DNA of 62,510 nt, the filler included, from Hausera hauseri (Eukaryota): NCBI GenBank assembly GCA_046269625.1. It is 11 parts of 11 records of this genome, joined end to end, with 100 filler letters (N's around TTAATTAATTAA, not from the genome) between each part and the next. Parts side by side here need not be neighbours in the genome. Positions count along the whole stretch, not along the records: positions 1 to 5,726 come from JBJURY010198859.1; 10 more parts are not named here. The stretch is one strand, 5' to 3'. Shown in pieces: positions 1 through 42,995 of the stretch (position 1 is the stretch's first letter; each line of letters starts with the position of its first letter). Made by a program: the position numbers and the translations under genes. The notes under the pieces were generated by a model. The model saw only the letters and a program-made list of their open reading frames with translations. It did no database searches and was not told where the DNA came from.

Positions 1-85
1 ATGGCAAACCATAACGTAGAACAAGTGATTAAGTCAAAAGCTGATTTCACTCTCCCAATTAGAAAAGTTTTCAGGCAAAGAAGAT

Positions 86-895
86 GTGCAGGATTTCGTC
101 ATGGAGTATGAGGTATACTCAAGAAGTTTTGGTTGGAAGGACCAACAACGTATGGAGAGATTACCTCTCCACTTAAAAGGGACAGCCTTGACGATATATT
201 TCCAGATGCCAGAAGAAGATAAGAAAGATTGGAAAACCGTTAAAGAAAAGTTGCCGCAAAAGTTTTTAGTTGATCCCTCTGGAAAGGGAAGGATAGAAGA
301 GTTCATACAAAAAAGGCAACGAAAAGACGAAACGGTTCAAGATTATGTATGTGCACTGGAAAAGTTAGCAGCTAGGGCATACCCTGACGTAACGATAAGA
401 AATAACGCACTGTTGGCCCAATTCCAATACGGACTTGAAGAAAAGTTAAGAACGATAATCCTGCAAGCCGACCCACCGACGTTCCAAGAAGCCATAAGAA
501 AGGCACGTAAAGCCGAACGAGATGCGGAACTATATAGGTGGAGTAGGTCTAAAAATTATGAAAAGCAAAAGAACAATAGTACACAAAAATATCAACGCTA
601 CGATAGAAACCGTAGCCCATCTCAAACATCAGCCATGGAAGCTGAATCCGATATAAATAAGCAAGTAAGGTTTAAATTAAGGAATCATGGCGAAAAATCC
701 ACTTATGTAAAGTATCCTAAGAAGGATAAGAAAGATGGTAGATCCCTACCACCGATAGATTCGGAAGGAAGGCTAAAGTGTTTCAATTGCAACAGATATG
801 GACATATTGCAAAAGCATGTAGAGCGAGAAGAAATGCTAAAGACGACAAAAAGGAACCAAGAAAAGAATATATTTCAGCCATATCAGACGAGTAA
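86..895 (+). CDS. gag: Gag (capsid-like core plus zinc knuckle); the stop at 893 is probably a mutation
   Basis: LPLHLKGTA, QRKDETVQDYVCALEKLA, QFQYGL and CFNCNRYGHIAKAC motifs; the copy near 28160 has TCA where this one has TAA. Confidence 0.9.
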   Translation: MQDFVMEYEVYSRSFGWKDQQRMERLPLHLKGTALTIYFQMPEEDKKDWKTVKEKLPQKFLVDPSGKGRIEEFIQKRQRKDETVQDYVCALEKLAARAYPDVTIRNNALLAQFQYGLEEKLRTIILQADPPTFQEAIRKARKAERDAELYRWSRSKNYEKQKNNSTQKYQRYDRNRSPSQTSAMEAESDINKQVRFKLRNHGEKSTYVKYPKKDKKDGRSLPPIDSEGRLKCFNCNRYGHIAKACRARRNAKDDKKEPRKEYISAISDE

Positions 896-2573
896 TCGGA
901 TGAAGAATACGAAACAGAATGAAGCATTAGCGAATACGAAAGCAAAAAGGAAAGTAAAAAGGACAAAAAGAAGGAAAAGAAAGGAAGTATTAGTTTTATA
1001 GAGGATATTGTATCTCAACATATAAAGACTCAATTAGCAATAGAGTTAAACGATTATAAAACACAACAGAAGAGACTGAAGGAAAACGGTATTTACACAT
1101 TAGAGGATAAAACTCAAGTGGGAAAATCTCGCCAAAGTAGAAAGAAAGGAAACAAGAAAATAATTGAAATTAGCTCAAGAGAAACGTCAGTCGAGAAAAG
1201 CGAGACTGTAAAAAGAAAAGAAAAAAGTGGGACGTAAGAAAGATGCACCTGACGAAACCCCTTCGGAGGAAGGTAAGATAGAAACCCCACCAGTAAAATT
1301 ATTTGATGAAACAGTAATAGAGCAGGTAATAGCACAAGATGTCGAAGTGGATTTAGATGCGGAAGACGATATCATTCGAGCAATAGTGTATATTGATCCT
1401 GAAAATATAGTTGACATAAATCAGGCAACTACGTCAATATTAAAGATAATTGACAACAAAATATCAACGATAAAATTATATGAAATCTTATTCCAACTTC
1501 TTCTATTAGCCCATGATACTAGTCCTGTCAGAGATATTGCACGAACAGTACTGGCCAAAGAGGCAGATGACGAGAAGGGAAGAAACGAATTCGTTAGAAT
1601 AACACTAAAGGAAGAAAACCAGGACATGAGAGTAATAAGAATGAAGGAAACTGATGATATATTAGCCTTACGAGAAAAAATAGAAGTTATAACCCTTTTA
1701 TAAAGAAAAAGTATATGGACTGAATTTCTATGGGCGAACATTGTATGGTTATGATAACTTTTTTAAGAATTGGATGTAGAAGTGAGAACTATAAGGGCTG
1801 AGGAAACGATAAATGAAATAGTTCGAGAATTAGAACCACAAGAAAAGATGGCTCAACCCTTCCGTGACACTCAGAATGTTATAACTCAGACGGAAGCTAA
1901 ACGACGAGGTAGACCAAAAGGAACGAAAATAAGTGATATAAGGAATAAAAGGGATAGAAACGAAGAGATAGTTCGACGATTATTACTGGGGGGTACGGAT
2001 GTGGCAGCAGAATCAGTCGATATTGACCCTTTAATTAGAACTTTATTAGCACGATTGCATACTTCGTTTGCATCATTTGATATGCAAGTAACGATCCCAG
2101 ATGAACTATTCCAGTTAATACGTAATGCTCTATTAAGAATCAGTAGACAATTTTATGAAAATATTGCCGAAGAAAGGATTAACGAACTTTATGAACAAGA
2201 TATTTTAGAAAAGATGTTTGCAACCGGAATTACGAAAGATAAAGTATTAACAGTAATAGCATACCTGTTATACAAAATAATTACTATTAATTATCAGACA
2301 CAGAATTTAGACGAAATTGACCGTAATATTAAAGTAATTATTAAGGTTTTGCGAGACGCACTAGAAAATTGGGTGCAGTGCAGGGGCAGATGGGTGCAAA
2401 GTCTAACGACCACTATTATGGGACCAGAAATTCATGAAAGAATATCCGATGCGAGCCAACTAAGAATGCAAGCTACCAGGCAAGGTCTAACCAACATGTC
2501 CTTCACTGAAATTCTACAATTATTGTTAGTAGCCTCAATATGCATGCCTAAGGCTATGGACATAGTCACTTAA
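896..2573 (+). pseudogene. Spacer protein between Gag and glycoprotein (basic region, helical region, possible Ubl, AT-hook-like KRRGRPK, ending in a signal peptide)
   Basis: ORFs 1227-1703 and 1770-2573 align with 28555-29951; hydrophobic LLQLLLVASICMPKAM immediately precedes (Y)DC. Confidence 0.7.
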
Positions 2574-4340
2574 GATTGTTCAAAATTAAAGGAAGGACAA
2601 AAATATTCATTGGTAGATCTAGAGAAATGTCCAGAAGCGGACCCGGAGCACCTAATAACAACGACAGGCCACACCTATTACGTGTATCAGGAATCAGGGT
2701 TTATTAAGGTTAAGATAAGAGAGTGCGATCTAAAAAAGTCATTCTTTTTGTTCAACTGTACATATTATTCAGGTAATTCTGCAATAATGGAGCCTACAAC
2801 TCCGTTCGAACCAATAATTATTTTACGAGCTGAATGTCAGGATGCATATAAAATCGGAGTAATCACAGTCCAGAACGCTCAGATTCCAGCTGTACGAAAT
2901 AAAATAAAATACACTCGAATTTTCAGAGCTGGAAAGATTGACAAAACTAGTGAAGGGTCCTGCGTTGGAGTGAATTACGATGTAGGAGGTATTATTGCGC
3001 CAAGAACAGTTGCCATTGAGGATTATCAAGTCCAATTAAAAGAGTATGAAGCATTGTTTGATTCCAAAACTAAAATAATGACTACTATGAATGAATGCGA
3101 ATATGAAAACGGTGAATGTGACACTGGAGAATCTAAGATGACGTGGGAAGTATCAACGGGTAAATGCCATCTTACATTATTAAAAGAAGGGAGGTTCAAC
3201 AAAACGGTCGGAAAGACGACAGAAAAAGAAACAGCTACTTTTAAGGAAGGACAAAAAGATGTTAGAATGACGGAAGTCGCTACTGTGGTATACTCAGAAA
3301 ATCCTCAGGATATGATGCGATTTAAAATTACCGGAACGATAAGAAAATGTAATGAAGATATATCCAAAACCAATTATAAAGGCCAAAATTTGTCTTTAAA
3401 AGAAATCCCTGGTGCCAAAATGAAGCTAGATAAAAGGGATATAAAGTTAACGCAACACTTTGATAATAAAATTGATTTCTTAATCAACTATGTAAGAATA
3501 GAAATCAGAAGTCTATACCGAGAAATAATAATGAACGAATGCAAATTGAATTATGAAATAATGAGGAATAAACTGGCTGTAGTGATAACTAATCCAGATA
3601 TGGTGGCACCGGTAATGCCCTTTGGCCAAGGAGTAATCGGAAGGATCATGGGTGAGGCACTGATCACAATAGAATGTAAGAAAGTAGAAGTTAAGTTGAG
3701 ACCCACTACGGAATGCACGACGGAACTACCGGTGGACTACAATAACGAACCAAGATACGTAATGCCAGTAACAAGAATTCTTCTAGACGCTGAAGTTAAG
3801 CCAAACTTGTTGATAAACTGTACATATAATATGTCGCCGATGTTTAAGATAAATGATCAGTGGATAAGAATGCCAAAACGGGAACGTGTAACACCGCCTG
3901 AAACACTCAGCCTAATAAACTTACAGAAAAATCATAAATTTGAACCACTTACCGGTATACCTCAAGGAGGAATTTATACCGAACAAAATTTAGAGGATTA
4001 TAGACGAATGCTATTATTCCCACAACAGCGACAGCGAGTAATAACGGAATTAACCAGAAAAGTAATGTGGGACGGTGAAGGATCACCACAATGGGAAAAT
4101 CTGATGGGTCGAGATTATCTAAAAAAGGTTACTCGAAATGTAATGGAAAAGATGTGGGGAAAGTTTTTATATTTTGGCCAAGCAGCCTCAGGATTTTTAG
4201 CCATATATTTTATGATTAGCACATTGCGAACGATATTTACCGCTCTCAGCAAAGCTTATGGGATTCATGCAGCAGTTGGATGCTCATGGAAAATTATAAT
4301 AGCCGTTATACCAGCAGTAGCTAGTTGCTTCCTAGCAAGA
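2562..4340 (+). CDS. env: Chuvirus-like (gB-type/class III) envelope glycoprotein ectodomain plus transmembrane region
   Basis: N-terminal IV(A/T)YDC..YSLVDLEKC; GEALITIECKKVEVKLRPTTECTTELPV..PVTRIL; GGIY..L..YRRMLLFP; WGKFLYFGQAASGFLAIYFMI. This matches the motif series I recall for chuviral glycoproteins. A TAY>TAA nonsense change is at 2571. Confidence 0.8.
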
Positions 4341-4805
4341 CATGACGCAAAATGGAAAAGAAGGATACTCAAAGACAAAAATAAAGATTTAGAGAATAAC
4401 TCACCGTACAGTACGCTTAATAGAAAGGAGGATGATGAGAATAGCAACTCCCCAAACACAAGTAAACATATCAATAAATATATGAAAAGATTGAGGCGAG
4501 TTTCATGGACGTCATGGAATCGAAAATACAAGAAGACATTAATGTCACAATTACCGAAAATAAATTTCGCTGACGAATATAATGGTCAAGCTATTATGGT
4601 TCCAACAGCACCTCAATATACAGGATTGTCACCCCAATGTACGGGATCAATAACACCGGAGCAAGGATACCTTTCAGAACAGAAAGAGATGTATCCAATA
4701 TACCAAGTACTAAGAATGAAACGAAATTGTGACGAAAATCAGATGCCCTATAATCGCGATACCACTTGCAAGGTAAGTGAGGATTACCAAAAACAATCAT
4801 CAGCA

Positions 4806-5726
4806 AGGCCTGAAATAATGACTGACATAAATGGGTACCCAATGATTGCTCTAATAGACACAGGATCAACAACCACAATAATGGGAAGAAACCAATTGCC
4901 CCTGGAACTAGTAAAGAAACTGAGAAAACCCTCCGAGACGTTAATAAACGTCGAAGCATTTGGCACGGAAGAGAAGATAAGGACAGTCCTCGACGCCAAA
5001 GTTACAATATGTATTCAGGTAATTAAACACACCGTAAGGGTGGCAGAACGTTTAACAAATGAAATATTAATTGGATGTGATATCTTGAATCAGTTGGAAG
5101 ACGCATATATCGACTTAAGCACAGGTCAAATAAGGAAATTTAATACGAAACAGCATGATGGAGCGGTGTCATTGATAAAAGATATTGTAATTCCACCACG
5201 TTCCGAAATAATAGTATCTGAAAAAATAGAAGGCAAATCTCTCGGTAAAAACGTATATTTCGAACCATCCATAGTAACCATGGAAAAGTATGAAATACTG
5301 ATAGCACCTCATATAGACAGAATAAGAGACGGAAAAATCCATTTACGGATTTGTAACACGGGACGAAAAGAAATGAAGCTAAAAAGGAATACTAGAATGG
5401 GATGCGTAATGGTGGTGGAGGATACGCTAGAAAGTTCTAGGGAAGGCACTAATTCTGTCATCTCAGAAGTAGATACAATTGAAAAAATGATGGCAGCAAA
5501 ATTAAGTAACGCAATAAGCAAAGTGAAAACAAAAGACAAGACTAGTGTTATTAATTGGGATGAGAAATTACAGGATTCTAAAGTGTTGACAGACGAGGAA
5601 AAGAATAAGTTACAAGAACTCCTAATAAAAAATAATGATCGCTTTAAACAAAATGACTATGACTTAGGAGTTATGAACGTTATACAACATTCTATTAAAC
5701 TAAAAAACGGGCAAGATAAACCAATA
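4806..5726 (+). CDS. pol: Aspartic protease, dUTPase-like linker and RT N-terminus, in frame with the glycoprotein (ORF 2610-5726)
   Basis: ALIDTGSTTT (DTG at 4857-4865), ILIGCDIL, IVIPPRSEIIV..LRICN, DLGVMNVIQHSI. Confidence 0.9.
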
Positions 5727-5826: not shown

Positions 5827-6389
5827 ATGCTCTAATTATCTTTCCAGGCTGCATCTCTAGTTCCATACTATCCCATTTTAGTCTTCCGGTTTCTCGAGCC
5901 TGTTTGCAGTGTTTTCTTTCTAAATTATCGAAGAATGTCCTTGCATTAATCCACAATGAGAAATACTACGAGATCGTCTCAGCATACATTCCATGCCGTC
6001 CAAGGATATCAACTCTTGTTGTTGGTATAGAAAATAACGCTTCTCCCTTTTTCTAATTTGTGGGATCTGGCATCCTCACATGCCTCTAAATCCATTAGTG
6101 ACTATTTTTGCCCAAGCTTAAATCTATCGCAGTCGTATACAGTAACGGCACCCATCTGTCTTATTAGCATCATTATGGTGAGTAAACTGATTAACCAATT
6201 AGATTCATTTTTCCGGTTGCTACTATCCGTTTTCGTCAAGTTCCGTGAAATGTCTTCGAGTCTATTGTTGCTACTGGTTCTTTTGTCTTCTTCCTTATCA
6301 AATAATCTTGACCACTTTACTTCTCAAGGAAGTTTACTTTTTTTTTTTTTTTTACTTTTTTTTAGTTTACTTTTGGATAACTTGAAACG

Positions 6390-7247
6390 TCAACTTCTTA
6401 TTGTCCTAGCTGCGTTACATATCGCTTTTTCTTTATCATCTATTGTGTCTCCTCGAAGGCTTGAATAATTTACGATTCGTATTAAATTTCTCATTAGTTC
6501 ATTTAATTCTTCGTTTTTAGTACGGAAAGTGGGAAGTGACAATTGCCTCAGTTCTCTAATCAATTCTTCGTTATAATCTGCTTCTTCTCGGGCCTTTCTA
6601 GGCCTACCGATTGGGCGTTTTGATTTTCGGGCAATAGTCGTTATTCCACTTGATGGCACTAGGTTCTTATCGTATTGTTCCTTGTCCTCATTTGTTTGTA
6701 AATATTCGAAATACATTGCAGCATCCCATACTCCCATGATTTGTCCTACGCACAGCTCTGTCTTAGCCTTACGCGTGGCTTCTTCCTTTGTCTCTGCATT
6801 AGCTATTATTACTACTATTCGATTTTTCTCACCAGGAATAATTCCAACGTCTGTTAGTAGTTCTAAATCATCGAGTATTCTACCTCTAAAGTGAAATCCG
6901 TAATTTAGCTCATTTGTTTCGCCATTCTTTAATAACCACTCCCTTATATCCTTTAGCTGAGAATGTGTAGCTAGCTTACACTCATTTTCTTCCATCCACT
7001 CGGATAATGTCATTACTTTTATTGATACCTCAGGTTTATCTCTCAAGATATTCGCATACTTTTTCATCAAAAGTTTCGGAACCGCGCTGTAGATTGTGTT
7101 CTTACTAGATAATTTCGTCAAGGACGAAATAAGTTGTCTTAGCTTATTTTCAGAAATATTTACGTTAATTAATTCAATTAGTTCCTTTTCGGTTATTGCG
7201 GAATCCAAGAGCATCTCCACATTGAATTTCCTGTTTTGCGGATACAT
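6390..7247 (-). CDS. Spacer protein with ubiquitin-like domain and AT-hook-like motif
   Basis: YGFHFRGRILDDLELLTDVGI resembles the Ubl motif LIFxGKxLxDxxxLxDYxI; RPIGRPRK at ~6595-6620. Confidence 0.55.
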   Translation of the reverse strand: MYPQNRKFNVEMLLDSAITEKELIELINVNISENKLRQLISSLTKLSSKNTIYSAVPKLLMKKYANILRDKPEVSIKVMTLSEWMEENECKLATHSQLKDIREWLLKNGETNELNYGFHFRGRILDDLELLTDVGIIPGEKNRIVVIIANAETKEEATRKAKTELCVGQIMGVWDAAMYFEYLQTNEDKEQYDKNLVPSSGITTIARKSKRPIGRPRKAREEADYNEELIRELRQLSLPTFRTKNEELNELMRNLIRIVNYSSLRGDTIDDKEKAICNAARTIRS

Positions 7248-7772
7248 TTCCGTTTCATTTAAATGTACCGGAGTTACCGGAATTTCGGCCGTTATTGTTT
7301 CTAAATAAGCATCCCATTCGGGTTCATTTCCAATATTTGGAAGTCCATAGTCTACTAGAGCTATGTTCGTTTTTGTACATTCTCTCGAATTTCTTTTAAT
7401 TTTGGTTGTATTTCTTTCATCTACGTAGTCCGGAAACCTATCCCGTTTCCACAGGCATACTGAATCATTTTTAGTAGTTCACCTAGTTTATAAGAATTGA
7501 TAAATCCTTTCTCGTGATAATCGATTAGTTCAATAATTACGTTTCTTTGCCATCTTTGTACAAATTCTCGCTTATTTTTGATTTCTGATTCCGTAAAAGC
7601 GTATTTATTCCGGTAGCTTTCAAACTCTTTTACTATTTTATCTAGTCTCATTGTTCTTCATTTCGTTCTGATGCACGTTTCTTCAACTTGTTGTAATTTT
7701 GGCATCAATTGCCTCATCTTTTCATCATTAATCTCCGCCATTTCCACCAATAAATAGGCTAGCCCATACATC

Positions 7773-9139
7773 TCATTTATAATTTTTTGAGTCGGGATCC
7801 ATTGCGTCCATCAATTTCTTAACGAACTTAGATTCTTCGACACTAACACGTTGATTGTTTCTTATTTTCGTCAACTCGTTATGACAATTCTGATCTGTAC
7901 CGGCCATCCATTCTCGTGCTTCATGCAAAAATTTTACTGCTTCTATTAGGGCTGCTCCATGTTCTGGACAAATACCTAGGGTTTCGATATCCTGGATTAA
8001 AGTCTCGTCAATAGGTTTCTCTGTTAAATGTTGGATTCCTTCTCGTCGGATGCTTCTTAATCTTGAATAAAAATTGCAAGTCATATTTCGCTTTTCTGTA
8101 AAATTCGTTTCTTCAATCATTTTATATATTTCTTCCAATATTGCCATTTTTTGCTTCTCCTTCATAAAATTTAATCGTCGTAATGATTCGAACCGTGTCC
8201 GGATGTCTATTTCTGCTTGTATGGTGTTTAAGTTACGTGCACCTTCTTCTAGTTGCTTTTTTACAGATGGTTCGCTTTCCGGAAATTCTTTCTTGCGGTA
8301 TTCTATTAATTTGCTTAATCTCGTTATTAATTCGGACCATTCTACAATTGGTTGGCAATTATCGGCTTTGCTAATATTGTCTTGTCTAACATTTTATATG
8401 CATCTTTCAATTCATTGTCGGGGTCTTTTATGAAGTTCATAATTTGGCTAGCATAATTGAGCTCATTCTTACATTCATCGAATTCTATGATGCAAGTCTT
8501 TATTATATATTTGGTTTCTTTACTATTCATGAACATGATTCGATTTCTTAAACTACTGATCTGCGATCTTTTTTCATTCGCCATTTTAATGCGGCTTTCT
8601 AAGTCCGCACATCGTCTGGTTTCGGCAAAGGCAATTTTTATCATTTCCATGAACAGAGGAATATCTATCGGGTCTACACCCAATATTTCCAAGTCGATAT
8701 CTCTTCCATTGCTAACCGGTTTTTCTCTAAGTCGATCAATCATTGCATAACGGATTTCATCCATCTTGTGTTCTAAGTTACGGGCCACTTTCTTTAACTT
8801 AGGATTAGTTTCTAAGGTAGATAGTAGTGTTTGCGCTTCAGCAACTTTTACATCGATACTATCTTTGTCTTTACTCCATCCTTCCGAAAATTCGACTCCA
8901 CTTTTAATCCATGACTCTAATTTATAGTTCCATTTTGTCAACGTATCATGCGACACCTCTTCCGGTTGTCTCAACTCGATTGCTTCTTCGAGCTTTCTTT
9001 CGCTAAGTAATTTTAAACTCTTGTATAGTTTCTTCACAAATTGTTGTTCTTTACCCGATATATCTGTTTGTTTACTGATCTGTTTAAGTCTTTCTAATTT
9101 ATGTTGGAGTACTTCCGGATCATGATATCTGGTTCTCAT
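7773..9139 (-). CDS. Helical spacer-protein fragments (ORFs 8342-9139 and 7773-8165), function unknown
   Basis: Long K/E/L-rich ORFs on the element's sense strand with mutual similarity (LREKPV..LEILGVDP / LTEKPI..IETLGICP). Confidence 0.5.
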
Positions 9140-10390
9140 TGATTTTAGTTCCTCGGCATTCTTCCATGAACGTCGAACTTTCCATTTTCTCGCACCGAAA
9201 TCATCATTGTCTTCCGTTTCTTACTCACTAGCGAGAAGCGGACAAATTTCATTTATTTCGTCGTTATTATTTATTGTCTCTGGTGTTCCCAACCCTTTTT
9301 CATTTCTTTTAGGGGTTCTAAAAGTATCTAAGGGCACGTCGCCTTCTAGAATAGTAATATAAAAGTCTTCTTTTCCTTCCACGTCCTTCTTTATGAGAAA
9401 CCGTGAGAGTCTTGGATTTTCTCCTAGGCTATGGGCTTTTACCTCTATTCGTCGTTATCTTGAGAACTAAAGGCCCAATAAATTCACTTTAGATCTCATC
9501 TGTTGTCTCATTTGGGTGGTACTTTTCAGATTCTGAATCTAAATCAACATTCTGAAATGTCTTTGGTTTCTCTAACTGGGCTATTCCTTGGGGAATAGAC
9601 TTTTTACGCGCCATATTGGCATTGTTTGATACCAGTGCATATTCTTCTTCGGTTTGTGGTTTTCTTAATCCGTGATAAACTTCCATTAGTCGTAATTTCT
9701 CTTCATATTCTTTCCTAGCCTTCATTACTTGAGGATTTGTAGATTCGCCTAAATTTCTCACATATTTACGTAGATCTTGCATTTCAATGATCAGGCTTAT
9801 ATCACCGCGTTTACCGTAGATGGCTTCTAAGTTATTTCTAATCATACTTGTTTTGTTCGGTTCGGTAAATGCGATACTTCTAGGATTCGGACATGACCTT
9901 GCGATGTGTCCTTCTTTGCCACATGTAAAACAAATTAAATTCCCATTCCGGCGAATCCTTTGTCGGCTATTTTTATTTACAGGTGATTTTGCTCTGTTTG
10001 TAATCTTATTCTGGCTTTGTAATATATGTTTGTTGTCACCGTCATATCTGTTATGATTATTCCGATTATCAGTGTATTTATTATTGTGTCGGTAAGCACC
10101 TTGGTTCCTGTCTGAATTGTAACTCGATCTATTATACGAGTTGTATGTATTTTGATTATTACTAAAATTTCTGTCATTTCTTTGATTCCTATTGTGAACA
10201 TTTTGATTTCTGTTATCAAAACTTCGGTTTCGGTTATTATCATTAAATCGTATGTTGTCCTGATTATCGTTTCTATTCCGGCTATTGCGGNNNNNNNNNN
10301 NNNNNNNNNNNNNNNNNNNNNNNNNNNNNNNNNNTTAATTAATTAANNNNNNNNNNNNNNNNNNNNNNNNNNNNNNNNNNNNNNNNNNNN

Positions 10391-10420: not shown

Positions 10421-10588
10421 GTCTTTTTCATTTTCCTTACGTGAGACTTACCCTACCCTACTTTTGTATTCCTACCTCACCAGTGTGTTTTTGCCTACTT
10501 AGCTCTCTACAAACAACAGAGTATCACTGCAATGGATTCCTGCACACCAGCATACAAGGAAGTGATTGACACCTCCACATGACTAACA

Positions 10589-13500
10589 TTGCATAAGCTG
10601 ACTTTAGAAAGTCCAGAACTTTCTGAAGTACCACCCACCTTGTGGGCGCAAACAAAATATGATGTGGGATTGATAAAGGATCAAATACCAATTCAAATCA
10701 CTCCTAAAACATCTTACAGGCCAAAAATACCACAATACCCTTTAAAACCTGAAGCCATTACAGGCATTACACCTGTATTCCATTCACTTTTGGAAGCAGG
10801 GGTAATTGTTCCTTGCCCAACCTCACCTGTTAGGACACCGATCTTTCCTGTGAAAAAGATCCGCTCCACCCCTCCCGATGACTGGCGTTTTGTGCAGGAT
10901 CTCAGAGCGGTGAACGCTGCGGTTCAAGCACGTGCACCCATCGTTCCTAATCCATATGTGATCTTATCACAAATACCGCCTGGCTCCACCCATTTCTCAG
11001 TCATCGATTTAGCTAACGCCTTTTTTAGTGTTCAGGTTCATCCTGATAGCCAATTCTGGTTTGCATTTGAGTTTTTGGGTAAATCTTACACTTTCACAAG
11101 ACTCTGCCAGGGGTACTGTGAATCACCAACCATTTTCCACCAGGCCTTAAAAGACAGCCTGGCAGGTTTCAGTCTTCCACCTGGGTGTGCATTGCTTCAA
11201 TATGTTGATGATCTACTTCTTGCAGCTCCTGATGAGCAATCATGTAAAACACACACAGTCCGCCTTTTGCAATATCTTGCGGCTGAAGGTCATAAGGTCT
11301 CATTGTCCAAACTTCAGTTTGTGTTGCCATTAGTTACATTTCTGGGCCACAAAATCTCAGCAGCAGGAAGAGAGCTTGCAGCTACACGAGTTGCAGCCAT
11401 TGTGTCTCTACCACTTCCTGAAACTAAAAAACAATTGATGTCTTTTCTGGGGTTATGTAGTTATTGTCGACATTTTATACCAAACTACGCAGAGCATGAA
11501 GCACCCCTGCGCGCCGTTTGTCATGCTAAAGGCCTTCTAATGAGCTCTAAATTGACTTGGACTCCATCTGCATTGACTGCATTTGAGACCCTGAAATCTC
11601 AATTGCAAAAAGCACCCACCCTAGGTATTCCTAATCCAACACGCCCATTTGTGCAGGCTGTGGATGAAAGGGGTGGATGTATGACGTCTGTTTTGATGCA
11701 AAAGCATGGTGACCGGATGAAACCAGTGGCATACTTCTCATCAAAACTTGACCCAGTTGCTGCTGGACTTCCTCTTTGCTTGCGCGCTGTGGCAGCAGCT
11801 GAAAAATCTGTTTTGGCAAGCAGAGACATCGTGGGGTACGCAGATTTGACCTTGCTCGTGCCACACGCTGTCACTCAAATTCTAAATGAACAAAAAACCG
11901 CTCATTTATCGACCGCTCGTTGGCTGAGATATCATTCTACTCTTCTTGACATGCCCAACATCACCATTCAACGTTGCAACGTCTTAAATCCAGCCACTCT
12001 TTTACCTTCTCCTACTGAAGGAACTCCACATGACTGTTTAGCTGAACTTGAAGTGCTCTGCACTCCAAGACCTGACTTACAACAAGAACCTCTTGAGCAT
12101 CCCGACTGGGAACTTTTTGTAGATGGCTCATCTTCACGTGACCCTCACACTGGTTCTATTAACAGTGGTTATGCTGTCGTCACTTCCTCTTACACTGTTG
12201 AGGCTAATTCTTTACCACCTTGTTCAGCCCAAGCTTGTGAACTGATAGCGCTTACCAGAGCTTGTCAACTTTCTGAAAATAAATCTGTCAACATCTTCAC
12301 AGATTCCAGATATGCTTTTGGCATTGTCCACGACTTTGGAGCATTGTGGAAGCAACGTCACTTCCTGCGCTCTAACGGACAACCAATCTTAAATCATAAA
12401 CTTGTTTCTAATCTTCTTGAAGCCATCACTCTTCCCTCACACATTGCTGTAGTGAAATGTGCAGCACACACAAGAAACACTGACTATGTTTCTAAGGGAA
12501 ACGCAGCCGCTGACATTGCAGCTAAATCTGCTGCTACGTCACTTCCTGCTGCTACTTCACTTCCTGTCAATGTAAACTCTCTGTCACTCATGGTTCATTT
12601 ACCACCCAAGAACACAGAAACACCTGACTCATTCACTCTTGCAGACATGCAGAAACTTTCTACTCCCGCAGAAAGAGCAGCGTGGAAACGCTTGGGGAGT
12701 ACATTCACTGATGGCATCTGGCTAGGCCCTAACAACAATCCTTGTCTACCTCACCATTTCTTTCATTCCTTTGCAGTGTTGATACATGGGCGTGACCATG
12801 TATCCAAAGGGGGGATGCTGAGGGACATTGACACTCATTGGTTTACTGTGAAATTTTTGAAAGTTGCTGAACAATACTGTAACTCATGTCTGATCTGTGC
12901 AACTCACAATGTGTCCAAACCAATAAAAACTACTGCAACAGGTGCACACAAAACAGTGACCGCGCCTTTTCAACATCTAATGATTGACTTCATTGAACTG
13001 ACTCCTGTTCAAAACAAAAAATACTGTCTGGTTGTCGTGGATATGTTTTCAAAATGGGTTGAAGTTTTCCCCTCAAAACATAACACAGCAAACACAGTAG
13101 CCAAAATTTTGTTAACAGAAATCATTCCACGATGGGGAATTCCCCAAAAAATCTCAAGTGATAATGGTTCTCATTTTGCTAATGAAATCATGACTGAAAT
13201 ATCAAAAACATTGAACTTTGACCTAACAAAACATTGTGCTTACCACCCACAGAGTGGGGGAGCTGTTGAACGTGAAAATGGTACCTTGAAGAACAAGTTG
13301 GCCAAACTTTGTGAGGACACACAACAGAACTGGGTTACATGTTTGCCCGTCGCTGTAATGTATATGAGAATGCGAAGGAGGGCTAAGTTTAACCTTAGCC
13401 CTTTTGAAATTCTTTTTGCAGCTCCACCCAATCTTGGCATTGGACCAACGAGAGATCCCACCAGCGATCTAAAACACTGTGATCATAACATGATGAATTA

Positions 13501-13810
13501 CTGTATTGAACTAACCAAACATTTAACATCCATAAGGTCTCAGGTCCAGGGAGGACTTCCTGCTCCTGCGCAGAAACCTTTACATTGTATTTCTCCTGGA
13601 GACTTTGTTATGCTTAAATGTTTCAGGAGAAAGCGCTGGAACTCCCCCAGGTGGACAGGACCGTTCCAAGTACTGCTGACCACCCACACGGCTGTGAAGG
13701 TGGCTGAAAGAGCAACTTGGGTCCACGCCAACCACTGCAAACTCTTCAGGGGGACCAAACCAACCACGGAGGAAGGACCGGGAGAGCCAAATCCACACCA
13801 AGCACCTTAG
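10589..13810 (+). CDS. pol: Retroviral Pol (RT, tether, RNase H, integrase), fish epsilon/ERV1-like; the TTG start is not a real start
   Basis: WRFVQDLRAVN, IDLANAFF, LLQYVDDLLL, FVDGSS..SAQACEL..NIFTDSRY, H..H..CLIC, IDFIEL..SDNGSHF..GAVERENG, WTGPFQV; 1073 aa with no stops. Confidence 0.97.
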   Translation: MHKLTLESPELSEVPPTLWAQTKYDVGLIKDQIPIQITPKTSYRPKIPQYPLKPEAITGITPVFHSLLEAGVIVPCPTSPVRTPIFPVKKIRSTPPDDWRFVQDLRAVNAAVQARAPIVPNPYVILSQIPPGSTHFSVIDLANAFFSVQVHPDSQFWFAFEFLGKSYTFTRLCQGYCESPTIFHQALKDSLAGFSLPPGCALLQYVDDLLLAAPDEQSCKTHTVRLLQYLAAEGHKVSLSKLQFVLPLVTFLGHKISAAGRELAATRVAAIVSLPLPETKKQLMSFLGLCSYCRHFIPNYAEHEAPLRAVCHAKGLLMSSKLTWTPSALTAFETLKSQLQKAPTLGIPNPTRPFVQAVDERGGCMTSVLMQKHGDRMKPVAYFSSKLDPVAAGLPLCLRAVAAAEKSVLASRDIVGYADLTLLVPHAVTQILNEQKTAHLSTARWLRYHSTLLDMPNITIQRCNVLNPATLLPSPTEGTPHDCLAELEVLCTPRPDLQQEPLEHPDWELFVDGSSSRDPHTGSINSGYAVVTSSYTVEANSLPPCSAQACELIALTRACQLSENKSVNIFTDSRYAFGIVHDFGALWKQRHFLRSNGQPILNHKLVSNLLEAITLPSHIAVVKCAAHTRNTDYVSKGNAAADIAAKSAATSLPAATSLPVNVNSLSLMVHLPPKNTETPDSFTLADMQKLSTPAERAAWKRLGSTFTDGIWLGPNNNPCLPHHFFHSFAVLIHGRDHVSKGGMLRDIDTHWFTVKFLKVAEQYCNSCLICATHNVSKPIKTTATGAHKTVTAPFQHLMIDFIELTPVQNKKYCLVVVDMFSKWVEVFPSKHNTANTVAKILLTEIIPRWGIPQKISSDNGSHFANEIMTEISKTLNFDLTKHCAYHPQSGGAVERENGTLKNKLAKLCEDTQQNWVTCLPVAVMYMRMRRRAKFNLSPFEILFAAPPNLGIGPTRDPTSDLKHCDHNMMNYCIELTKHLTSIRSQVQGGLPAPAQKPLHCISPGDFVMLKCFRRKRWNSPRWTGPFQVLLTTHTAVKVAERATWVHANHCKLFRGTKPTTEEGPGEPNPHQAP

Positions 13811-14010
13811 GTTTCACCTAGGCTGCCAACTATTTCAGCACGCTCAACATCATCGGATGGTTGAGACTGCAGTGAAGGAGCACCTACGGGACCACACTCA
13901 CAGCTCAGGCTGCGGTCTACTGTGAGGCGGCGGGTACCAAGACCCACAACTAGGTTGAGGAAGCTGAGCCCAACCCCTCTGTCCTCTCTTTTATCCGAGA
14001 TTAGTATTCT

Positions 14011-14026
14011 TCCTTTACCTTTACAG
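14011..14026 (+). promoter_or_regulatory. Probable env splice acceptor
   Basis: Pyrimidine tract TCCTTTACCTTTACAG ending 25 nt before the env ATG. Confidence 0.55.
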
Positions 14027-14051
14027 CCAAAGAAACATTAAAAGATTCATC

Positions 14052-19480: not shown

Positions 19481-19492
19481 CGCCAGTGTGCC

Positions 19493-19510: not shown

Positions 19511-19511
19511 G

Positions 19512-27255: not shown

Positions 27256-30200
27256 ATGACAAATCAGAGTGCTAATATAATGGAGCATGTGATTCAGTCG
27301 AAAGCTGAATTCACCTTGCCCATGAAGAAGTTCTTAGGTAAGGAGGACGTGCAAGATTTTATTATGTAGTACGAAGTGTACTCAAAGAGCTTTGGTTGGA
27401 TTGACCAAAAGCGAACAAAAAGATTGCCTCTTCAATTAAGAGGGACTGCTTTGACAATTTATTTCCAAATTCCCGATGAAGACAAGAAGAATAGGAAAGG
27501 AATCAAAGAAAAACTGCCTCAGAAATTCTTTATGGATCCCTCTGGAAAGGGTAGAATAGAAGAATTTATAAGAAGAAGGCAACGTAAAGATGAAACAGTC
27601 CAGGATTTCGTCTGTGCACTGGAGAAGTTAGCCGCCAGAGCATATCCTGACGTTACTAGAAGAAATAATGCATTACTAGCCCAATTCCAATACGGGTTAG
27701 AAGAGAAGTTACAAACAATAATCTTGCAAGCAGATCCACTTACATTTCAAGACTCCATAAGAAAGGCGCGAAAAGCCGAACAAGATGACGAACTATATAA
27801 ATGGAATAATCCTAGAGGTTATAATAATTATGATAAACAAAGGAATAGTAATAAACAAAAAAATTATGAACGTTATAACAGAAGCAGAAGTCCATCCCAA
27901 ACATCGGCCACAGAAGCAGAATCTGATGCGGAAAAGAAGGTCCGGTTTAAATTAAAGAACGACGGTGAAAAAGCGAGTATTAAGAAGAAGTCTTTCCTAA
28001 AGATGAAAGAAACTTACCTAATATAGACGCTGAAGGAAGGTTAAAATGTTTTAATTGTAACAAATATGGTCACATAGCAAAAGCATGCAGATCACAAGAA
28101 AGGGAATCCTCAAAGCCTTATAAGCAAAAGAAAAAGGAATATACATCAGCCACATCGCACGAGTCATCTGATTAAGACTATGAAACAGAAGAAAGTGAAC
28201 ATGAAAAGAAGAATAAGAAGAAGGAAAGTGTGAATTATATTAATGATATACTATCTCAACGTATAAGAACTTAACTAGACATGGAGGTAAGAGATTATAA
28301 AACACAGCAGAAGAGATTAAAAGGAAAATAGTATTTACGTAGTGGAAGAAAAAACAAAAGGCAGAAAGCAGCGGCAAGGAGGAAAGAAAAGTAATAAAAA
28401 AATAATTGACAATATCGAATCAAGAGAAACTTCTGTGGAGAAAAGTGATGTAGAACAGAAGAAAAGAGGACGAAAGAATAGTGAGTTTACATCGTAAGAA
28501 AATGAAAAGAATGTCCCACCTACAAAAATTTGTGATAAAACCGTTATTGAACAAGTGATACACGATATAGAAGTAGACTTAGATGCTGAAGATGATCTTA
28601 TCCAAGCAGTAATTGCTATAAACCCTGAAAATATAATAAACGTAAATCAAGCGACGAGCACAATATTAAAGTTAATAGAAAATAAAGTATCTACCGATAA
28701 GATAAACGAAATACTATTTCAGCTATTATTAGTCGCCCACGATACGAGTCCAATAAAAGACATAGAACGAACAATATCGGCTAAAGCAGCTGAAGAGTAA
28801 AAAGGAAAAAACGAAACAGTAAGAATAACATTAAAGAAAGGAAACCAAGATATAAGGGTTATAAGAATGAATGAAACGGACGATGTATTTACATTACGAG
28901 AAAAGATTGGAGAACTAGAACCGTTTTATAAGGAAAAGACATATGGATTAAGCTTCTATGGCAGAACACTATACAGTTACGACAATTTGTTACGAGTGGG
29001 ATGTAGCAGTGAAAACTATAACCCAATTATGATAAGAGAGAGATACACTCCGATGCAAGAGCAGAAGCAACGATAGAGAATATAATAAGGGAACTGGAAT
29101 ATCAAGAGGTTGATGGATAACCATTAGGTGATACACAGGATGTTACGGTACAAACAGAAGCTCGGATGAGAGGGAGATCAAAAGGAAAAAAAATAAGCGA
29201 CTTTCGAAACAGAAAGGATCGAAACGAAGAAATAGTACGGTGATTGCTATTAGCAGGAACGGATACAACGCCAGAATCTGTAGATATAGATCCATTATTA
29301 AGAACGTTACTAGCCAAATTACATACGCCATTTGCATCGTTTGATATGCAAGTGGTAATTCCTGACTAATTGTTTCAGACGTTATATAACGGTATGCTAA
29401 AAATTAGCAGGCAGTTTTACGAAAATATTGGTGAAAAAAAAATTAATGAAATACATGAGCAAGATATATTAGAAAAGATGTTCTCAACAGGAATCACGCG
29501 AGAAAAAGTACAAACAGCTATAGCTTATCTATTATATAAAGTGATTGTGATCAATTACCAAACCCAAAATTTGGAAGAAATTGAGCGAAATATTAAAGCA
29601 GCGGTTACGGTTTTAAAGGACACGTTAGAAAATTGGGTCCAGTGTACAGGCGGGTGGTTATCAAGTCTTACCAAAAATGTAAGAACAAAAGGATACGGAG
29701 GACAAACAGAGATACCAATCTCAAACTTACACACACCAAGGCAATGCATAACAGGAATTACGATGATGGGGATCTTTCAGTTAATTTTAATAACATCGTT
29801 GCTGATACCCAAGACAATGGGAATAGTAGCATACGATTGTTCGAAACCTAAGGAAGGACAGAAATATTCCTTAGTTGATCTAGAAAAATGCCCCAAAGCT
29901 GACCCAGAACAATTAACGACGACCAGCGGTCACAGATATTGGATTTATTAGGAGTTTGAATTTATAAAAGTCAAGGTCAGGGAATGTTATGTAAAGAAAT
30001 CTTTCTTCCTGTTTAATTGTGCGTATTATTCCGGAAACTGCAATAATTGAACCAACAACACCATTNNNNNNNNNNCATAAAAGCCCAAAGCAAGGAATAT
30101 TATGTGAAGAAATCTTTTTTTTCTGTTCAGTTGTGCGTATTATTCCAGAAACTCTGCAATAATTGAACCAACAACATCATTTGAGCCGATAATACTATCG

Positions 30201-30551
30201 CGCGCCGAATGTCAAGATGTCTTTAAAATCGGAGTTATAACGATACAGAATGCACAAATAACAGCCGTAAGGAATAAGATAAAATATACTCAAATTTTTA
30301 GAGCCGGAAGAACAGATAAAACGATGGAAGGCACGAAGGATTATTCGACTCACAAACCAAACTCATGACGACAATGAGCGAGTGCGAATATGAAAGCGGC
30401 AAATGTGATACCGGCGAATCAAAAATGACTTGGGAAGTAACCGCGAATAGATGTCATTTGATCCTACAAAAGGAAGGAAAATTCAATAAGACAGTAGGAA
30501 AGACAGCCGAGAAAGAAACAACAACGTACAAGGAGGGCATCAAAGAACTAA
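27256..30551 (+). pseudogene. Second copy of gag - spacer - glycoprotein N-terminus (more decayed)
   Basis: Colinear with 1-3250; CFNCNKYGHIAKAC at ~28047; ILITSLLIPKTMGIVAYDCSKPKEGQKYSLVDLEKC. Confidence 0.9.
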
Positions 30552-30651: not shown

Positions 30652-33600
30652 GGAAATGTTTCCTATATCGTATACTAACTCCTTCAAGTTTAGGAAAGCT
30701 CCGTAGGTTCTGTGTGAGATTACTGGAGATCCATTCGTGTTCCCATTTTAATCCAGAATTTGTCTCTTAGGTACTGGGATCGCTGACTAACGGTCAACAG
30801 CCGGCTTATTTTTATATTCACTCCAGTCATGGCCTCTACCACTAACTTAAATCGGCCTTCCAAGTTTGGTGGTAGATGACCCTTTTTCGCTATGACCTTG
30901 ATTTCCATTTGTCCCATTACAGTTGGGTGGGTCTCTATCTCTCTCACTCCGACTATATGAGTTACTGATAGGTTTAATTTCTTTATCATTCTTTGTACTT
31001 GATACCCCACTAAGACGTATCTGTACAGCCATTGTGCTACTTCCTCTTGCACTAATTTGGAATCCTTCCGCGGATAATTGTTCTCTTTTAATTTTAGTCA
31101 CTTCAGCATAGGTTTCTTGTACCTTCTTTCTCGGGTTAATGATCTTTGAATAGATTTTGACCCCGTTCTCTTTTCGTATGGATATTTCAATTGGGATGTA
31201 GTTCCCTTCTTCTCCTTCTCCATAATTTATTGCGGAAATCCTGATATTCCTGTCATCGGTTACTAGTCTGAATGAATGTAGATGCGCGTCTTGTTCTTCT
31301 TCAGTGGGCCTTTGCCTAAATTCTAGGGCGGCAATGAGACGGGTGTTGTTTCCTCTTCAGTTTTCCCGACCATAATTTTTACAGGTAAGATTGCGATACG
31401 GAATTCCATCTCGCAATCGTGGAAATTCCTACTGTTAAATAAAAATGTGCTAACGGCTTCACGTCCATGCATCATAAAGAATGGCGTAAATCCTGTTGCT
31501 GGATGTGGTGTGGAATTAATTGCAAATTTAGTTCCTTCTAGAAATTCGTCCCAATTCTTTTGGTCCTTTGCCACTACTGTTGATAATATGCATATGACGG
31601 TAGCATTTATCCGTTCGACCATTCTGTTACTCTTAGGATGATATGCGGTGGTTGTTAATCGTTCGAATTTAAATATTTTGGAAATCTTCTCGAAAAGTTC
31701 ACTGGTAAAATTTCTTCCTCGATCTGTGAGTATCTGGTCTGGGGGCCCATATTGGCAAATAATTCTTTTTACTACGGCTTCTGCTAAAGTTTCGGCCTTT
31801 CGTTCGATTAATGCTATCAACTCGACAAAATGAGTTCGTCAATCGATACACGTCAAGATATACTTGTTGTTTTTGTGAGTTATATGGAGAGGTCCTACAA
31901 TATCCATCGACGTGGCTTGCATGAGCCTATCAGATACATCAATTGGTTTTAATTCGGCCATGTAATTTTTCGTCTTCTTTTGTTTAGTTGCACATACTTC
32001 ACGCGCATTTATCCAATTCTTCACATCAGTATAAATATTAGGCTACAAGTATTTATTCATTATTCTGTCTAATGTTTTCTTCCAAGACATGTATCCGGCT
32101 AAGTATGAATCGTGCTCTGACATCAGTACTTCGGTTCGTAACCCTTTTGGAATAACTATCAATTTTCTTCCTTTCCTTTGGTTATATAAAATATCTTCGT
32201 TACTCCCGTCATTTAAGACGCAGTATTTATGTCCGTGTCTGTGTAAATGTTTCTTTAGCTGTCGTCCCTTTGGTATGACATTCTTGCTAGCAAATTCTAT
32301 AATCTGCTGGATGACCTTATCCTTTCTTTGTTCTGTTGAAATTTTAATGGCCTTATCCATCGTTAAAGCGCGTTGGCGGTCTATTATCTCTTTGAGTTGA
32401 CTTTTCTTCATTACAGTGATTGCGCTTGTTTTGGTCTTTAGTCTGGACAGTGCATCTGCGTCTACATGTTTATTCCCTGGCTTATATTGAAATTCAATAT
32501 TGTATTTCGATATTTCTTTGATCTATCTGTTGAGTCTGCATGTCGGGTTATTTGCTCGGCCCTTCAAGGCTGTAACGGCCTTATGATCAGCGACAATTAT
32601 AATTTTCTGCCCGTATACATAAAAGTTAGTGTCGAAGTGCTTCTTTTACGGCTAGGGTTTCCAACTCAGTGACAGAATAATTTTTCTTTGCCTTTTTCAA
32701 GGAACGTCCTCCATAAGCAGTTGAGTGTTCTAATTCTTTATCTTCTCTTTTCTGTGCTAATTTATATCCAATGCCCTCTTTACTGGCGTCTGTCTTAATT
32801 ATAAAGGGTAAGTTAAAATCTGGGTATCGTAAAACAGGTTCACTTGTTAAGATTTTCTTCATTTCATCGAAAGCTTTCTGTTCGACGTCTGTCCATTTTC
32901 ATTTGATTCCTTTTTTAAGCAGACGATATAGGGGTGTATTTATTTTTGAATTATCTGGCACATAAGTTGCGTAATAACCGCAGAATCCTAGCCAGTGCCT
33001 TAACTCTTTCTGGTTTTGCGGTTCCATGAAATCTGATACTTTGTTCAATAACGATTTATCTGGTTTTGATCCTCCTTCTCCGACCATGTGGCCAAGGTAG
33101 GATACGGCATTTTGGGCCCATTTGCATGTCTTCGGATTTAACTTCAATCCGGCTTGTTCCATTCTCATCAGCGTATGTTCAATATTCTTTAAGTGTTCCT
33201 CTTCGGTCTTTGTCGCTATCATTACATCGTCTAAGTACGCAAAGCGTGATACAGTCCCATTGACATTTTGTTCATCATCCTCGTAAATATGGCTGGCCCG
33301 GTAGTGATTCCGAACGGCATGACGTTGAACTCATAAACACCGTCGTGTGTTTTAAATGTTTTCTTATAGCGGTTTTCGTCTTCAATCTCTACTTGCCAAT
33401 ATCCGGATTGTAAATCCAGAGTAGTAAACCATTTTGCTCCTGAGAGTCTGTCTAGGGTCTCCTTGACTGACGGTAATGGGAAGGAATCTTTCATCATAAG
33501 GTTATTTAAGGCTCTGTAGTTAATACAAAATCGAGGTTTTGTGGTACCTTTCTTAACCATGAGGATCGGTGAATACCAAGATCTGTAGCTGGGCCTGATT

Positions 33601-35964
33601 ATATCGGCTTTAAGCATTCGTTCCACTTCCTTTGTTATGTCGGGCCTTAGCGAATGTGGCGGAGGGTACCATTTCGGCATCTTCTGATCCTCAAGATCTA
33701 TTTCTTTATTCGAACCAGTCTTTTTTTAGCAGAATGGCCAGTTTTAATGTTTTCGCTTTACCAATATCTTCGTCTTTAGCAATAATTGATTTATATCGGC
33801 ATAATAATTCATAGAATCGACAATAAGACTCAGGTGGGAATTTAGTTTCAAGATGAGGTGGAAATTTGGCATACTTGTAAGGCTTTTCTTCAACAGTTAT
33901 TGACGATACTCTATACGTATCGCCTAGAGTAATATAAGCATGAAGTTTGACTGGAGTCTGGACATTATTAGCGATTCTGACCGGAACTCGACCGGAGTGC
34001 ACTCTCGTTAATATATTGCTGAGCATTATATTTGGATCTAACGTATTCTTTGGTTCAAAATATACCCGTTGATCGTCGTCTTGCTGTATTTGAGCGTAAA
34101 TTATCATTTCTGTTCTCGTTGGAATATCTTCGTCTACAGGTATCCATACCTCTCCAAATTTTCTATCCTTAGCGTTTTTCACGCCTTTATTTGGTCTGAT
34201 TTCTATCAATTTTTCTGTTTGCAAGTCAATTTGCAAGTCAGTTTGCAATCTTTTCAGTAAATTACATGCGAGAACTACGTCGTCGGTTAATTGCTCCAAA
34301 ACTGCAAATTCGTGACGGAAAAATTGTCCAGCTATTTGAACTTCTGGGTTCCATTTAAACATCGGTTTTGACATTTGACCAAAAGCTCCCATACTTCCTG
34401 TATCTTTTGCGGATGGAAGGTATAATTGTTCTCTCAGCGTTTGAGGTATTGAATTATTTTTAATGTAAGACATTTCCGATCCAGTATCGATTAAGTCATA
34501 AACTTCCCAATCTTCGATAGTGATTTTGGCGAAAGGTCTTCCTTCTATCACTGTCCCGAAACAGTTTGTTGCTACTTTTGGACGTTTAATTGCAGATATT
34601 TTATGTCCATTGACTTGACTTTCGGGGAGGATACTATATTTTCCGACAATTGTCTTAATTCTTCTTTTGGATATAACTCGTTGTTTTCTACGTGCAATTC
34701 TGCCGTTTCGTGTACTAACCAATGGTTCTCGATTGTTCTTGTGTAGTTCGGTATTCTGGAAGGTTTTTAACCTAGGATTGTCCCAAACCGTTGATCTAGT
34801 TTCTATATTTCGAGATTCTCTCGGAGAATACAACATCTTGGGAGCATCTGCGGATTGTCGGTAACACATCTTTTGTCGGATTCCGTAACGTTTTGTTTCT
34901 TCATAAGGGTCTTCTACGTTAATTGTTCTTTTATAGATTTCCGTCTGATATGAGCTCATTGATCGTTTGTCGCAGTCTTTATAAGTTGGAGCGGTAGGAG
35001 GTAACATAGGTAGTGTTGTTTTAATAACAGAATACGCTTTATATCTATTTATTCCCGAAAGTACTTCTCCTCCCTTAGTCTCGTTATCGTTTGAATCGTT
35101 TTTTCTTGTATTATGCTTTATAAATTTCCGCTTTTGCAAAAATATAGGTCTTTTTCTTCGTTTACGATTGTGATATCCGACGTGACGTTCTACGTCTGAT
35201 TTCATCTGTTTTCTTTGTATGTCTAAGAATTTTCCAAAAGGTGTTATGATCGCAGTTAAAATTTTGCAAGAAAATCCAGTTAACGTAAATATTTCGTACC
35301 CATTTATTACTGCTTGGATGACTGCATTAATCATTTATATTAGAAAATATATCGCTAAGAATCCGGATGCGGCTTGACCGAAAATTAAGAATCTTCCCTA
35401 AATTTTGTGGAGTATCTCTGTGGTTACTCGCTGGTAATGGTTTACGCCAAGTAAAGATTCCCATTTAGTTTGGTATTGTGTATCATCTACTACAGTAGCC
35501 ATAGCTCGATTTAACTGGTGTGTTCGTTGTTGTGGAAAGGCAAGGAATTGTCTGAAAGCCTCAATTTCCTTCGGTCTGTATATACCTTTCGATGAGGTGT
35601 CTTGAAATTTATCGTCTGTAATTTCTTTTGCGAGTTGTTCCTGTCAATTTATTTGGAGCGGCAATAATACCTCCATTTGGCAAGCTGACCCAGTCTGTCT
35701 CACTACGTCTAAACATAGGTTCTCCTAAGTTTGTCTTACAATTTTTAAGGATGGTCTGTTGGGTAGCGTTATCCAATAATACTCTCGTCAGCGGTGTAGC
35801 TAATCTCGGAATATTTTGGTAAATAACAGGAAGTTCCTGAATGCAACGTTTTTTTCCACGTTGATGGGTGCATCTCTCTTTTCACATTCATAGGTTAGCA
35901 ATACTTTGCCTGTCACCCGACCGAAAATTCCTTCTCTCATGGGAATTATTGGTGAAGCCAATTC
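30652..35964 (-). mobile_element. 3' half of a related element: glycoprotein C-terminus/TM - PR - RT - RNase H - integrase - further coding sequence
   Basis: CIQELPV..PLTRVLL and FLIFGQAASGFLAIYFLI (~35340-35400); LIDTGSE; LDLQSGYWQV; AYLDDVM (~33220-33240); TDASKEGIG; ILTDRGRNF..VERIN. Confidence 0.92.
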
Positions 35965-42990: not shown

Positions 42991-42995
42991 TACTA

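Follow-up and report, generated by a model that had tools for sequence, protein, structure and literature searches.

Introduction

Late domains are usually found on Gag or matrix proteins. In two retroelements of Hausera hauseri (assembly GCA_046269625.1), a PTAP word is encoded elsewhere, namely in frame between the membrane anchor of the envelope protein (Env) and a retropepsin, which raises the question of whether the tail of a fusion protein may carry a late domain and from where such a motif could have come. In the available text of the sources, P(T/S)AP is described to bind TSG101 and YPXnL to bind ALIX (PMC8402826), and late domains are reported to work at any position and to swap for one another (PMC8402826; PMC2958808).

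Both words were noticed in a preliminary description of the window, i.e. the whole stretch of 62,510 nucleotides analysed here, in which short contigs are joined by 100-base spacers. There, PTAP was regarded as a late domain which is conserved at the same position of two elements and has shifted to the tail of Env, and the element was taken to bud as an enveloped particle. In this study, we annotated the elements of the window, determined the position and the chance frequency of the PTAP pair, and counted late-domain motifs in the tails of related database proteins.

Materials and Methods

Element A is located on the contig at positions 1-5726, and element B on the contig at 30652-35964, which was read on the minus strand. 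The contigs end inside the elements, and the LTRs fall outside the contigs.

The homologue set comprised 151 proteins. After removal of 18 proteins without a complete membrane region and of two with tails shorter than 20 residues, 13 Env-protease linkers and 118 'stand-alone' tails (set 1) remained, the latter including a few that do not strictly stand alone (P0019, P0035, P0102, P0116, P0134, and P0137). A second set of 118 tails (set 2) was made of closer relatives at the level of 90% clusters; its rows are mostly without names, and the named ones are from ant genomes and from one chu-related virus. A word-indexed homologue search with the region from env over the tail to the protease returned one protein only, and an env-alignment search found no long fused Env form among 2088 candidates, which is weak evidence.

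Results

Gene order of the elements in the window

In element A, gag is followed by a spacer and a Bcl-2-like domain; next come the signal peptide and the fusion protein, and then an in-frame retropepsin (Table 1). Its gag, with a Ty3-type capsid and a CCHC knuckle, matches that of Ty3/gypsy (Metaviridae) elements, and the arrangement in which a class III env of the gB-like type separates gag from pol is that of GAG-ENV-POL gB-type errantiviruses. The model of the element A Env had a mean AlphaFold pLDDT of 80.5 and matched herpesvirus gB in Foldseek (E 2e-14). Reading of the ORFs showed that the start of gag is broken and that stops and frame changes follow downstream; in addition, the reading frame is interrupted by a stop (2571-2573) right after the Env signal peptide. 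The contig stops at 5726, short of RT, and the region between protease and contig end (5130-5498) gave no Pfam match.

Table 1. Coordinates of annotated features in the window. Element A, element B, and copy C are related retroelements on separate contigs.
Feature	Position	Strand	Evidence and remarks
Element A gag, capsid and CCHC zinc knuckle	29..895	+	Pfam Retrotrans_gag E 1e-8, Ty3_capsid 3e-7, zf-CCHC 1e-4
Element A spacer ORF between gag and env	1212..1703	+	No Pfam match apart from one at E 0.1; counterpart in sister copy C with 63% identity
Element A Bcl-2-like helical domain	1962..2400	+	BH1-like 2214-2264, BH2-like 2370-2393
Element A Env internal signal peptide	2502..2570	+	Hydropathy peak 1.77
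Element A fusion glycoprotein ectodomain, class III (gB-like, chuvirus-type)	2574..4163	+	Pfam Monjiviricetes_fusion E 8e-81
Element A membrane region	4164..4337	+	TM helix at about 4164-4226, then weaker hydrophobic/amphipathic stretch 4260-4337
Element A putative cytosolic Env tail (Env-protease linker)	4350..4802	+	Basic cluster at its start; predicted disordered
Element A PTAP, candidate TSG101-type late domain	4602..4613	+	Translation; context VPTAPQY
Element A MYPIY, imperfect ALIX-type YPxL-like word	4689..4703	+	30 residues past PTAP; outside the counted pattern YPx[LIVM]
Element A retropepsin protease, in frame with Env	4803..5099	+	Pfam RVP E 2e-7
Copy C, close relative of element A	27322..30551	+	gag, spacer, Bcl-2-like domain, env start; nucleotide blocks 71-76% identical; tblastn
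Element B pol	31323..34542	-	Protease, RT, RNase H, integrase; Pfam RVP, RVT_1, RT_RNaseH, Integrase_H2C2, rve
Element B PTAP	34987..34998	-	Translation; context PPTAPTY
Element B Env, C-terminal third	35146..35964	-	Anchor 35338-35391, basic cluster 35146-35166

The pol of element B has the gene order of Ty3/gypsy elements (Metaviridae) and contains several stops and frame changes. Its Env is 30% identical to that of element A over 253 aa (tblastn); one fragment matches Pfam Monjiviricetes_fusion (E 0.008), and stops and a frame change break env. In the env tree, A and B are sisters (support 99/96; 33% identity over 216 columns). Copy C ends ahead of the anchor, so that no tail is present in its contig. 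Altogether, the tail is reached in two of the four related window copies (A and B), while the other two stop earlier at contig ends. No intact multi-copy ORF was found in the window, every related copy having stops or frame changes. The window copies are decayed relatives of GAG-ENV-POL gB-type errantiviruses.

In copy C, a short env duplication at 30030-30120 flanks a 10-N gap and is probably an assembly artefact. A further related element at 5827-10290 (-) has a zinc knuckle and long spacer ORFs without assignment, and ends at the env start. At 18719-21622 (-), a gag fragment with 45% identity to the gag of element A is located near a 470-aa ORF without Pfam match, which looks similar to an exonuclease.

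The remaining contigs contain other kinds of elements. A vertebrate-type endogenous retrovirus at 10583-15824 (+) has a TLV_coat env and a pol in which RNase H and an integrase end of MLV type were recognised; its GC content is higher than that of the neighbouring contigs, so that more than one host may be represented among the contigs. At 45532-51469 (+), a gypsy gag end and pol precede an ORF (50609) which starts like a signal peptide and contains a basic word resembling a cleavage site; this ORF gave no Pfam match and is, as we presume, possibly an F-type env. The ORFs at 40600-44901 and 56461-62090 resemble fragments of the capsid and DNA polymerase B genes of polintons/adintoviruses; no Pfam match was obtained for 40600-41553.

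A Bcl-2-like domain ahead of env

A Bcl-2-like domain is located directly ahead of the env signal peptide in element A (1962-2400, +), in copy C (29370-29700, +), and in the database proteins P0003, P0005, P0011, and P0013, and is missing from several relatives (P0002, P0004, P0006). The Pfam Bcl-2 matches had E values of 0.008 (element A), 0.0002 (copy C), and 0.001 (P0005), all under the curated cut-off. BOK and BAK were among three PDB matches, with E values of 0.1 and 2.2, and the best three Foldseek rows were Bcl-xL (E 0.1-0.2). With VIA-align, Z scores reached up to 6.2, no higher than those of unrelated helical rows, and this comparison was discarded as support for the fold. The NWGR word that is usual for BH1 is missing from the BH1-like stretch. 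Each test is weak and the tests agree, so the assignment is weak but consistent. The env signal peptide may serve the Bcl-2-like domain as a membrane anchor.

Topology of the Env tail

The reading as a late domain depends on the side of the membrane on which the motif is exposed. A hydrophobic signal-peptide stretch ahead of the ectodomain was present in all 11 relatives displayed. Of the 15 Env-protease rows, 14 have a first hydrophobic segment after the ectodomain that reaches a KD value of 1.6, and in one row the second segment does so; for the 118 stand-alone rows, the counts are 98 and 13, respectively. On average, three to four basic residues follow the membrane segments. Element A is an exception in that its second hydrophobic peak is the higher one (1.96 vs. 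1.56), which leaves some doubt on the topology of this copy. RT and integrase must be cytosolic. Since signal peptide, ectodomain, one clear TM segment, basic cluster, and Pol follow each other in the same chain, we infer that the PTAP-bearing tail is on the cytosolic side, and not on the luminal side, which the preliminary description had named as the position that would speak against it. Residues 602-709 of the element A model have a pLDDT below 50, so that the tail is predicted to be disordered, and PTAP is an exact P(T/S)AP motif within this predicted disordered stretch. The density of N-glycosylation sequons was uninformative as a topology test, being higher in the tails.

Position and chance frequency of the PTAP pair

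Both words translate as initially described, and a six-frame scan of the window revealed further P(S/T)AP words only at 61508 and, in an antisense frame, at 2382. The same position in both elements was confirmed with respect to the anchor, the motif being located 142 (A) and 127 (B) residues past the shared anchor word GQAAS, and was not found with respect to the protease, the catalytic Asp of which follows after 85 (A) and 170 (B) residues. This spacing, similar to the anchor and not to the protease, indicates that the motif is placed relative to the anchor. That the linkers are otherwise unalignable proved roughly right: their local alignment score of 46 was equalled or passed in 159 of 2000 shuffles.

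By chance, the linker of A contains P(S/T)AP in 0.23% of 200,000 shuffles, and that of B in 0.35%. Any common 4-mer is found in 37% of 5000 shuffled linker pairs, and the linkers of A and B have a second common 4-mer, KRRI. Because common words are frequent in shuffled pairs and a second one is present here, the PTAP pair taken alone is only suggestive. Moreover, A and B are sisters, so that their common PTAP represents one inherited event and not two independent ones. It was retained at an env divergence of approximately 1.8 changes per site. No YPxL word is present in the element B linker.

Late-domain motifs in Env-protease relatives

Among the 13 database Env-protease linkers, P(S/T)AP was found in one, a count reached in 56 of 1000 shuffles. 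Judged by these sequences, PTAP itself is not conserved across the family, and the literal motif is, contrary to the preliminary description, absent from most relatives. YPx[LIVM] was present in eight of the 13 linkers (shuffle mean 0.81; 0 of 1000 shuffles reached the count), and five linkers had neither motif. Upstream of env, P(S/T)AP was absent and no motif enrichment was detected in 6120 residues of 14 relatives; there was also no motif enrichment from the protease onward (13 proteins, 10,007 residues). In P0006, P0007, P0010, P0014, and P0018, one ORF encodes zinc knuckle, Env, and protease together, and in some relatives it includes RT and integrase as well. Past the env tail, at least two tandem aspartic protease domains were observed in P0002, P0003, P0004, P0006, P0009, and P0014, with up to four matched stretches in P0006.

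Late-domain motifs in stand-alone envelope tails

In set 1, P(S/T)AP was present in 18 of 118 tails (shuffle mean 1.04, maximum 5; 0 of 300 shuffles reached the count) and absent from 54,378 residues of ectodomains; the best of 11 permuted control words reached six. YPx[LIVM] was found in 49 of 118 tails vs. 4.06 in shuffles, mostly preceded by L, I, M, or V, and Y[not P]x[LIVM] was not enriched (33 vs. 27.1). In set 2, the alignment seed of which contained 10 of 35 rows picked for P(S/T)AP, this motif was present in 27 of 118 tails vs. 0.88 in shuffles, and YPx[LIVM] in 51 of 118 vs. 3.82. Here, Y[not P]x[LIVM] was enriched too (49 vs. 25.3), and for this reason some of the tyrosine signal may be due to ordinary sorting motifs.

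Both sets together have P(S/T)AP in 45 of 236 tails; at least one of the two motifs is present in 118 tails, including 27 with both, and neither in the other 118. The enrichment of P(S/T)AP in tails of the wider family was 17- to 30-fold with low permuted controls, the controls being shuffles, permuted words, and ectodomains. In 32 of the 38 tails with both words, [PA][ST]AP is located ahead of YPx[LIVM], with a median gap of 26. The motif-bearing tails include that of a named chu-related virus glycoprotein (P0235). Thereby, the view that these Env tails carry late domains gained support for the motif types, which are enriched in the family, and lost it for literal PTAP, which is not family-conserved.

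The 18 PSAP/PTAP tails of set 1 are mutually unalignable (a score of 60 was reached by none of the 153 pairs), and the number of changes on the env tree is similar to that with shuffled labels (P(S/T)AP, 19 vs. 19.8; YPx[LIVM], 42 vs. 42.4). Unalignable tails and such a label-like scatter are expected of a short motif gained and lost repeatedly. PPxY was not clearly enriched (8 of 118 vs. 3.4 in set 1; 2 of 118 vs. 2.9 in set 2) and PTAPxY was rejected in the tail counts; both were dismissed as family features. The ant-derived tails P0152, P0170, P0201, P0211, P0216, and P0220 have a common TY-x-[LF]-x-L-[KR] ending past YPxL.

Discussion

Comparison with known systems

The layout of the elements has already been published, and the late-domain motifs in the tails appear to be the new part; our literature search, with most subscription papers beyond its reach, found no description of such motifs in these envelope tails. 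The giant gypsy-like Burro/GYPSM1 elements of planarians have Gag, a BCL2-like domain, an in-frame env, protease, and RT, and their env, which lies downstream of gag and upstream of pol, has matches to mononegavirus fusion proteins (Burro section of PMC6431247). By this description, Burro and element A share the order Gag, env, and protease, and the putative Bcl-2-like domain of element A would correspond to the BCL2-like domain of Burro; however, element A is compact, with about 1.6 kb from gag to env, whereas Burro has a giant ORF with BIR, MATH, and ankyrin domains (25-30 kb) (PMC6431247). No Pfam match to BIR, MATH, or ankyrin was found in element A. The Burro section reports a dUTPase-like domain between protease and RT from HHpred, whereas 5130-5498 of element A was searched with Pfam, and it does not mention late domains (PMC6431247). 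On its domain content, element A is Burro-like, not Burro proper.

GAG-ENV-POL HSV/gB-type errantiviruses are described from flatworms, nematodes, and bryozoans and share the Ty3/gypsy pol, the gB-type env, and the gene order with the window elements; by eye, Schmidtea env rows in supplement 2 resemble the window env (PMC13524379). In contrast to these viruses, the window copies are broken and their LTRs lie outside the contigs. The errantivirus study covers ectodomains, its main text is without late-domain, ESCRT, or budding terms, and its supplements contain PSAP three times, the two displayed ones in nematode ectodomain rows (PMC13524379). Chuvirus glycoproteins and the env of Anakin, a BEL/Pao element with chuvirus G, belong to the same Pfam family and have tails with the same motifs, and the main texts of both papers are without the words 'cytoplasmic' and 'motif' (PMC7642597; PMC10084718); unlike the window Env-Pol, they are stand-alone with short tails. 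Troyka and Kuafuorterviruses were considered and set aside, the descriptions at hand lacking the gag-env-protease-pol layout.

HIV-1 p6, with PTAP plus YPXnL, and MLV, with PSAP, LYPAL, and PPPY, resemble the tails described here in motif types, co-occurrence, order, disorder, and exchangeability, as far as described in PMC8402826. Retroviral late domains are, however, on Gag, whereas the motifs here are on a fusion-protein tail and PPxY is not clearly enriched. Membrane proteins which recruit ESCRT by a motif in their cytosolic part, as proposed here, are reported with bluetongue NS3 (PMC4452911) and E-cadherin (PMC9511404), neither of which is, by these reports, a virion fusion protein.

Proposed function and alternatives

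We give a slightly better than even chance to the reading that the class III Env tail bears a late-domain cassette with interchangeable TSG101 and ALIX motifs, which came with env and releases an enveloped particle. The element would make a Gag-(Bcl-2-like)-signal peptide-Env-tail-Pol polyprotein, which is one ORF in database relatives and broken in the window. Cleavage by signal peptidase would leave Gag tied to the membrane via the signal peptide and Pol via the Env anchor, so that both would collect at the cytosolic side of the membrane. The unstructured tail would then recruit ESCRT via P(S/T)AP (TSG101) and/or YPxL (ALIX), thereby severing the neck of the enveloped particle, and the protease would free the enzymes later. 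Across lineages, the two motifs would substitute for each other, and they would have arrived with the envelope gene and not from Gag. The order PTAP-then-YPxL is the same as in HIV-1 p6 as described in PMC8402826. Against the cassette speak the rarity of P(S/T)AP in the database linkers (one of 13), the lack of both motifs in five of these linkers and in half of the stand-alone tails (118 of 236), the missing YPxL of element B and the imperfect one of element A, the higher second hydrophobic peak of element A, the fact that A and B count once, and the broken state of both copies. The tyrosine signal and the seed of set 2 weigh on the same side.

The main rival is ESCRT sorting of Env: the motifs would bind ESCRT for Env traffic, either directing Env and the Pol tethered to it to multivesicular bodies or exosome-like vesicles, or removing the fusogen from the surface. 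Identical motifs drive the vesicle sorting of ordinary membrane proteins such as E-cadherin (in the available text of PMC9511404), and here they are located on a membrane protein and not on a capsid; YTGL, a YxxL word, directly follows the element A PTAP (4617-4628), and general tyrosine motifs are enriched in set 2. Pairing and order of the motifs, however, match viral late-domain cassettes (as described in PMC8402826), and the Gag-side regions, with no P(S/T)AP in 6120 residues, offer no such motif to do the budding. We consider sorting as the sole role rather unlikely, albeit worth serious attention, and the two uses are compatible. It is improbable that the A/B PTAP was merely left behind without function, or arose by coincidence, in a linker that drifts fast. 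Its absence from 12 of the 13 database linkers, the ease with which shuffled linker pairs share some 4-mer (37%), the single independent event, and the dead state of both copies would fit a leftover; but the word persisted through a divergence of about 1.8 changes per site, over which the linker around it became unalignable, and the 17- to 30-fold enrichment in the wider family exceeds the permuted controls.

As to the origin of the motif, the preliminary description implies that this lineage transferred the late domain from Gag to the tail of Env; alternatively, it could be a relic of a Gag end left ahead of the protease after env insertion. The location just ahead of the protease, as in HIV-1 p6, and Gag regions without the motif would suit such a transfer. 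Yet stand-alone envelopes without protease, including P0235, carry the same motifs in the same place, with P(S/T)AP at least as often, and on this ground the transfer is disfavoured; the spacing is constant to the anchor and not to the protease, and the 14 relatives have no P(S/T)AP in the 6120 residues upstream of env. A transfer from Gag is thus very improbable, and the late-domain cassette that arrived with env is the reading we retain.

Implications

More tentatively, and with somewhat less than even confidence, the whole family of chuvirus-type/gB-type class III envelopes (Jingchuvirales, gypsy, BEL) may carry its own p6-like TSG101/ALIX tail cassette. To our knowledge, no matrix protein has been recognised in chuviruses, and a matrix domain is absent from gypsy Gag. 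If true, the cassette would explain how viruses without a recognised matrix protein and retroelements without a matrix domain bud. Chuviruses are described to encode NP, G, and RdRp, and segmented forms add a further viral particle protein (available text of PMC7642597). For envelope-carrying retrotransposons outside Drosophila, the mechanisms of transmission 'remain elusive' according to PMC13524379. The PTAP at 4602 would be a minor instance of a wider tail-motif pattern. If that pattern holds, the capture of one env gene would provide a retrotransposon with entry and exit machinery, i.e. with a late-domain cassette on the fusion-protein tail, budding and fusion would be acquired in one step by env capture, and the pattern would extend to chuviruses.
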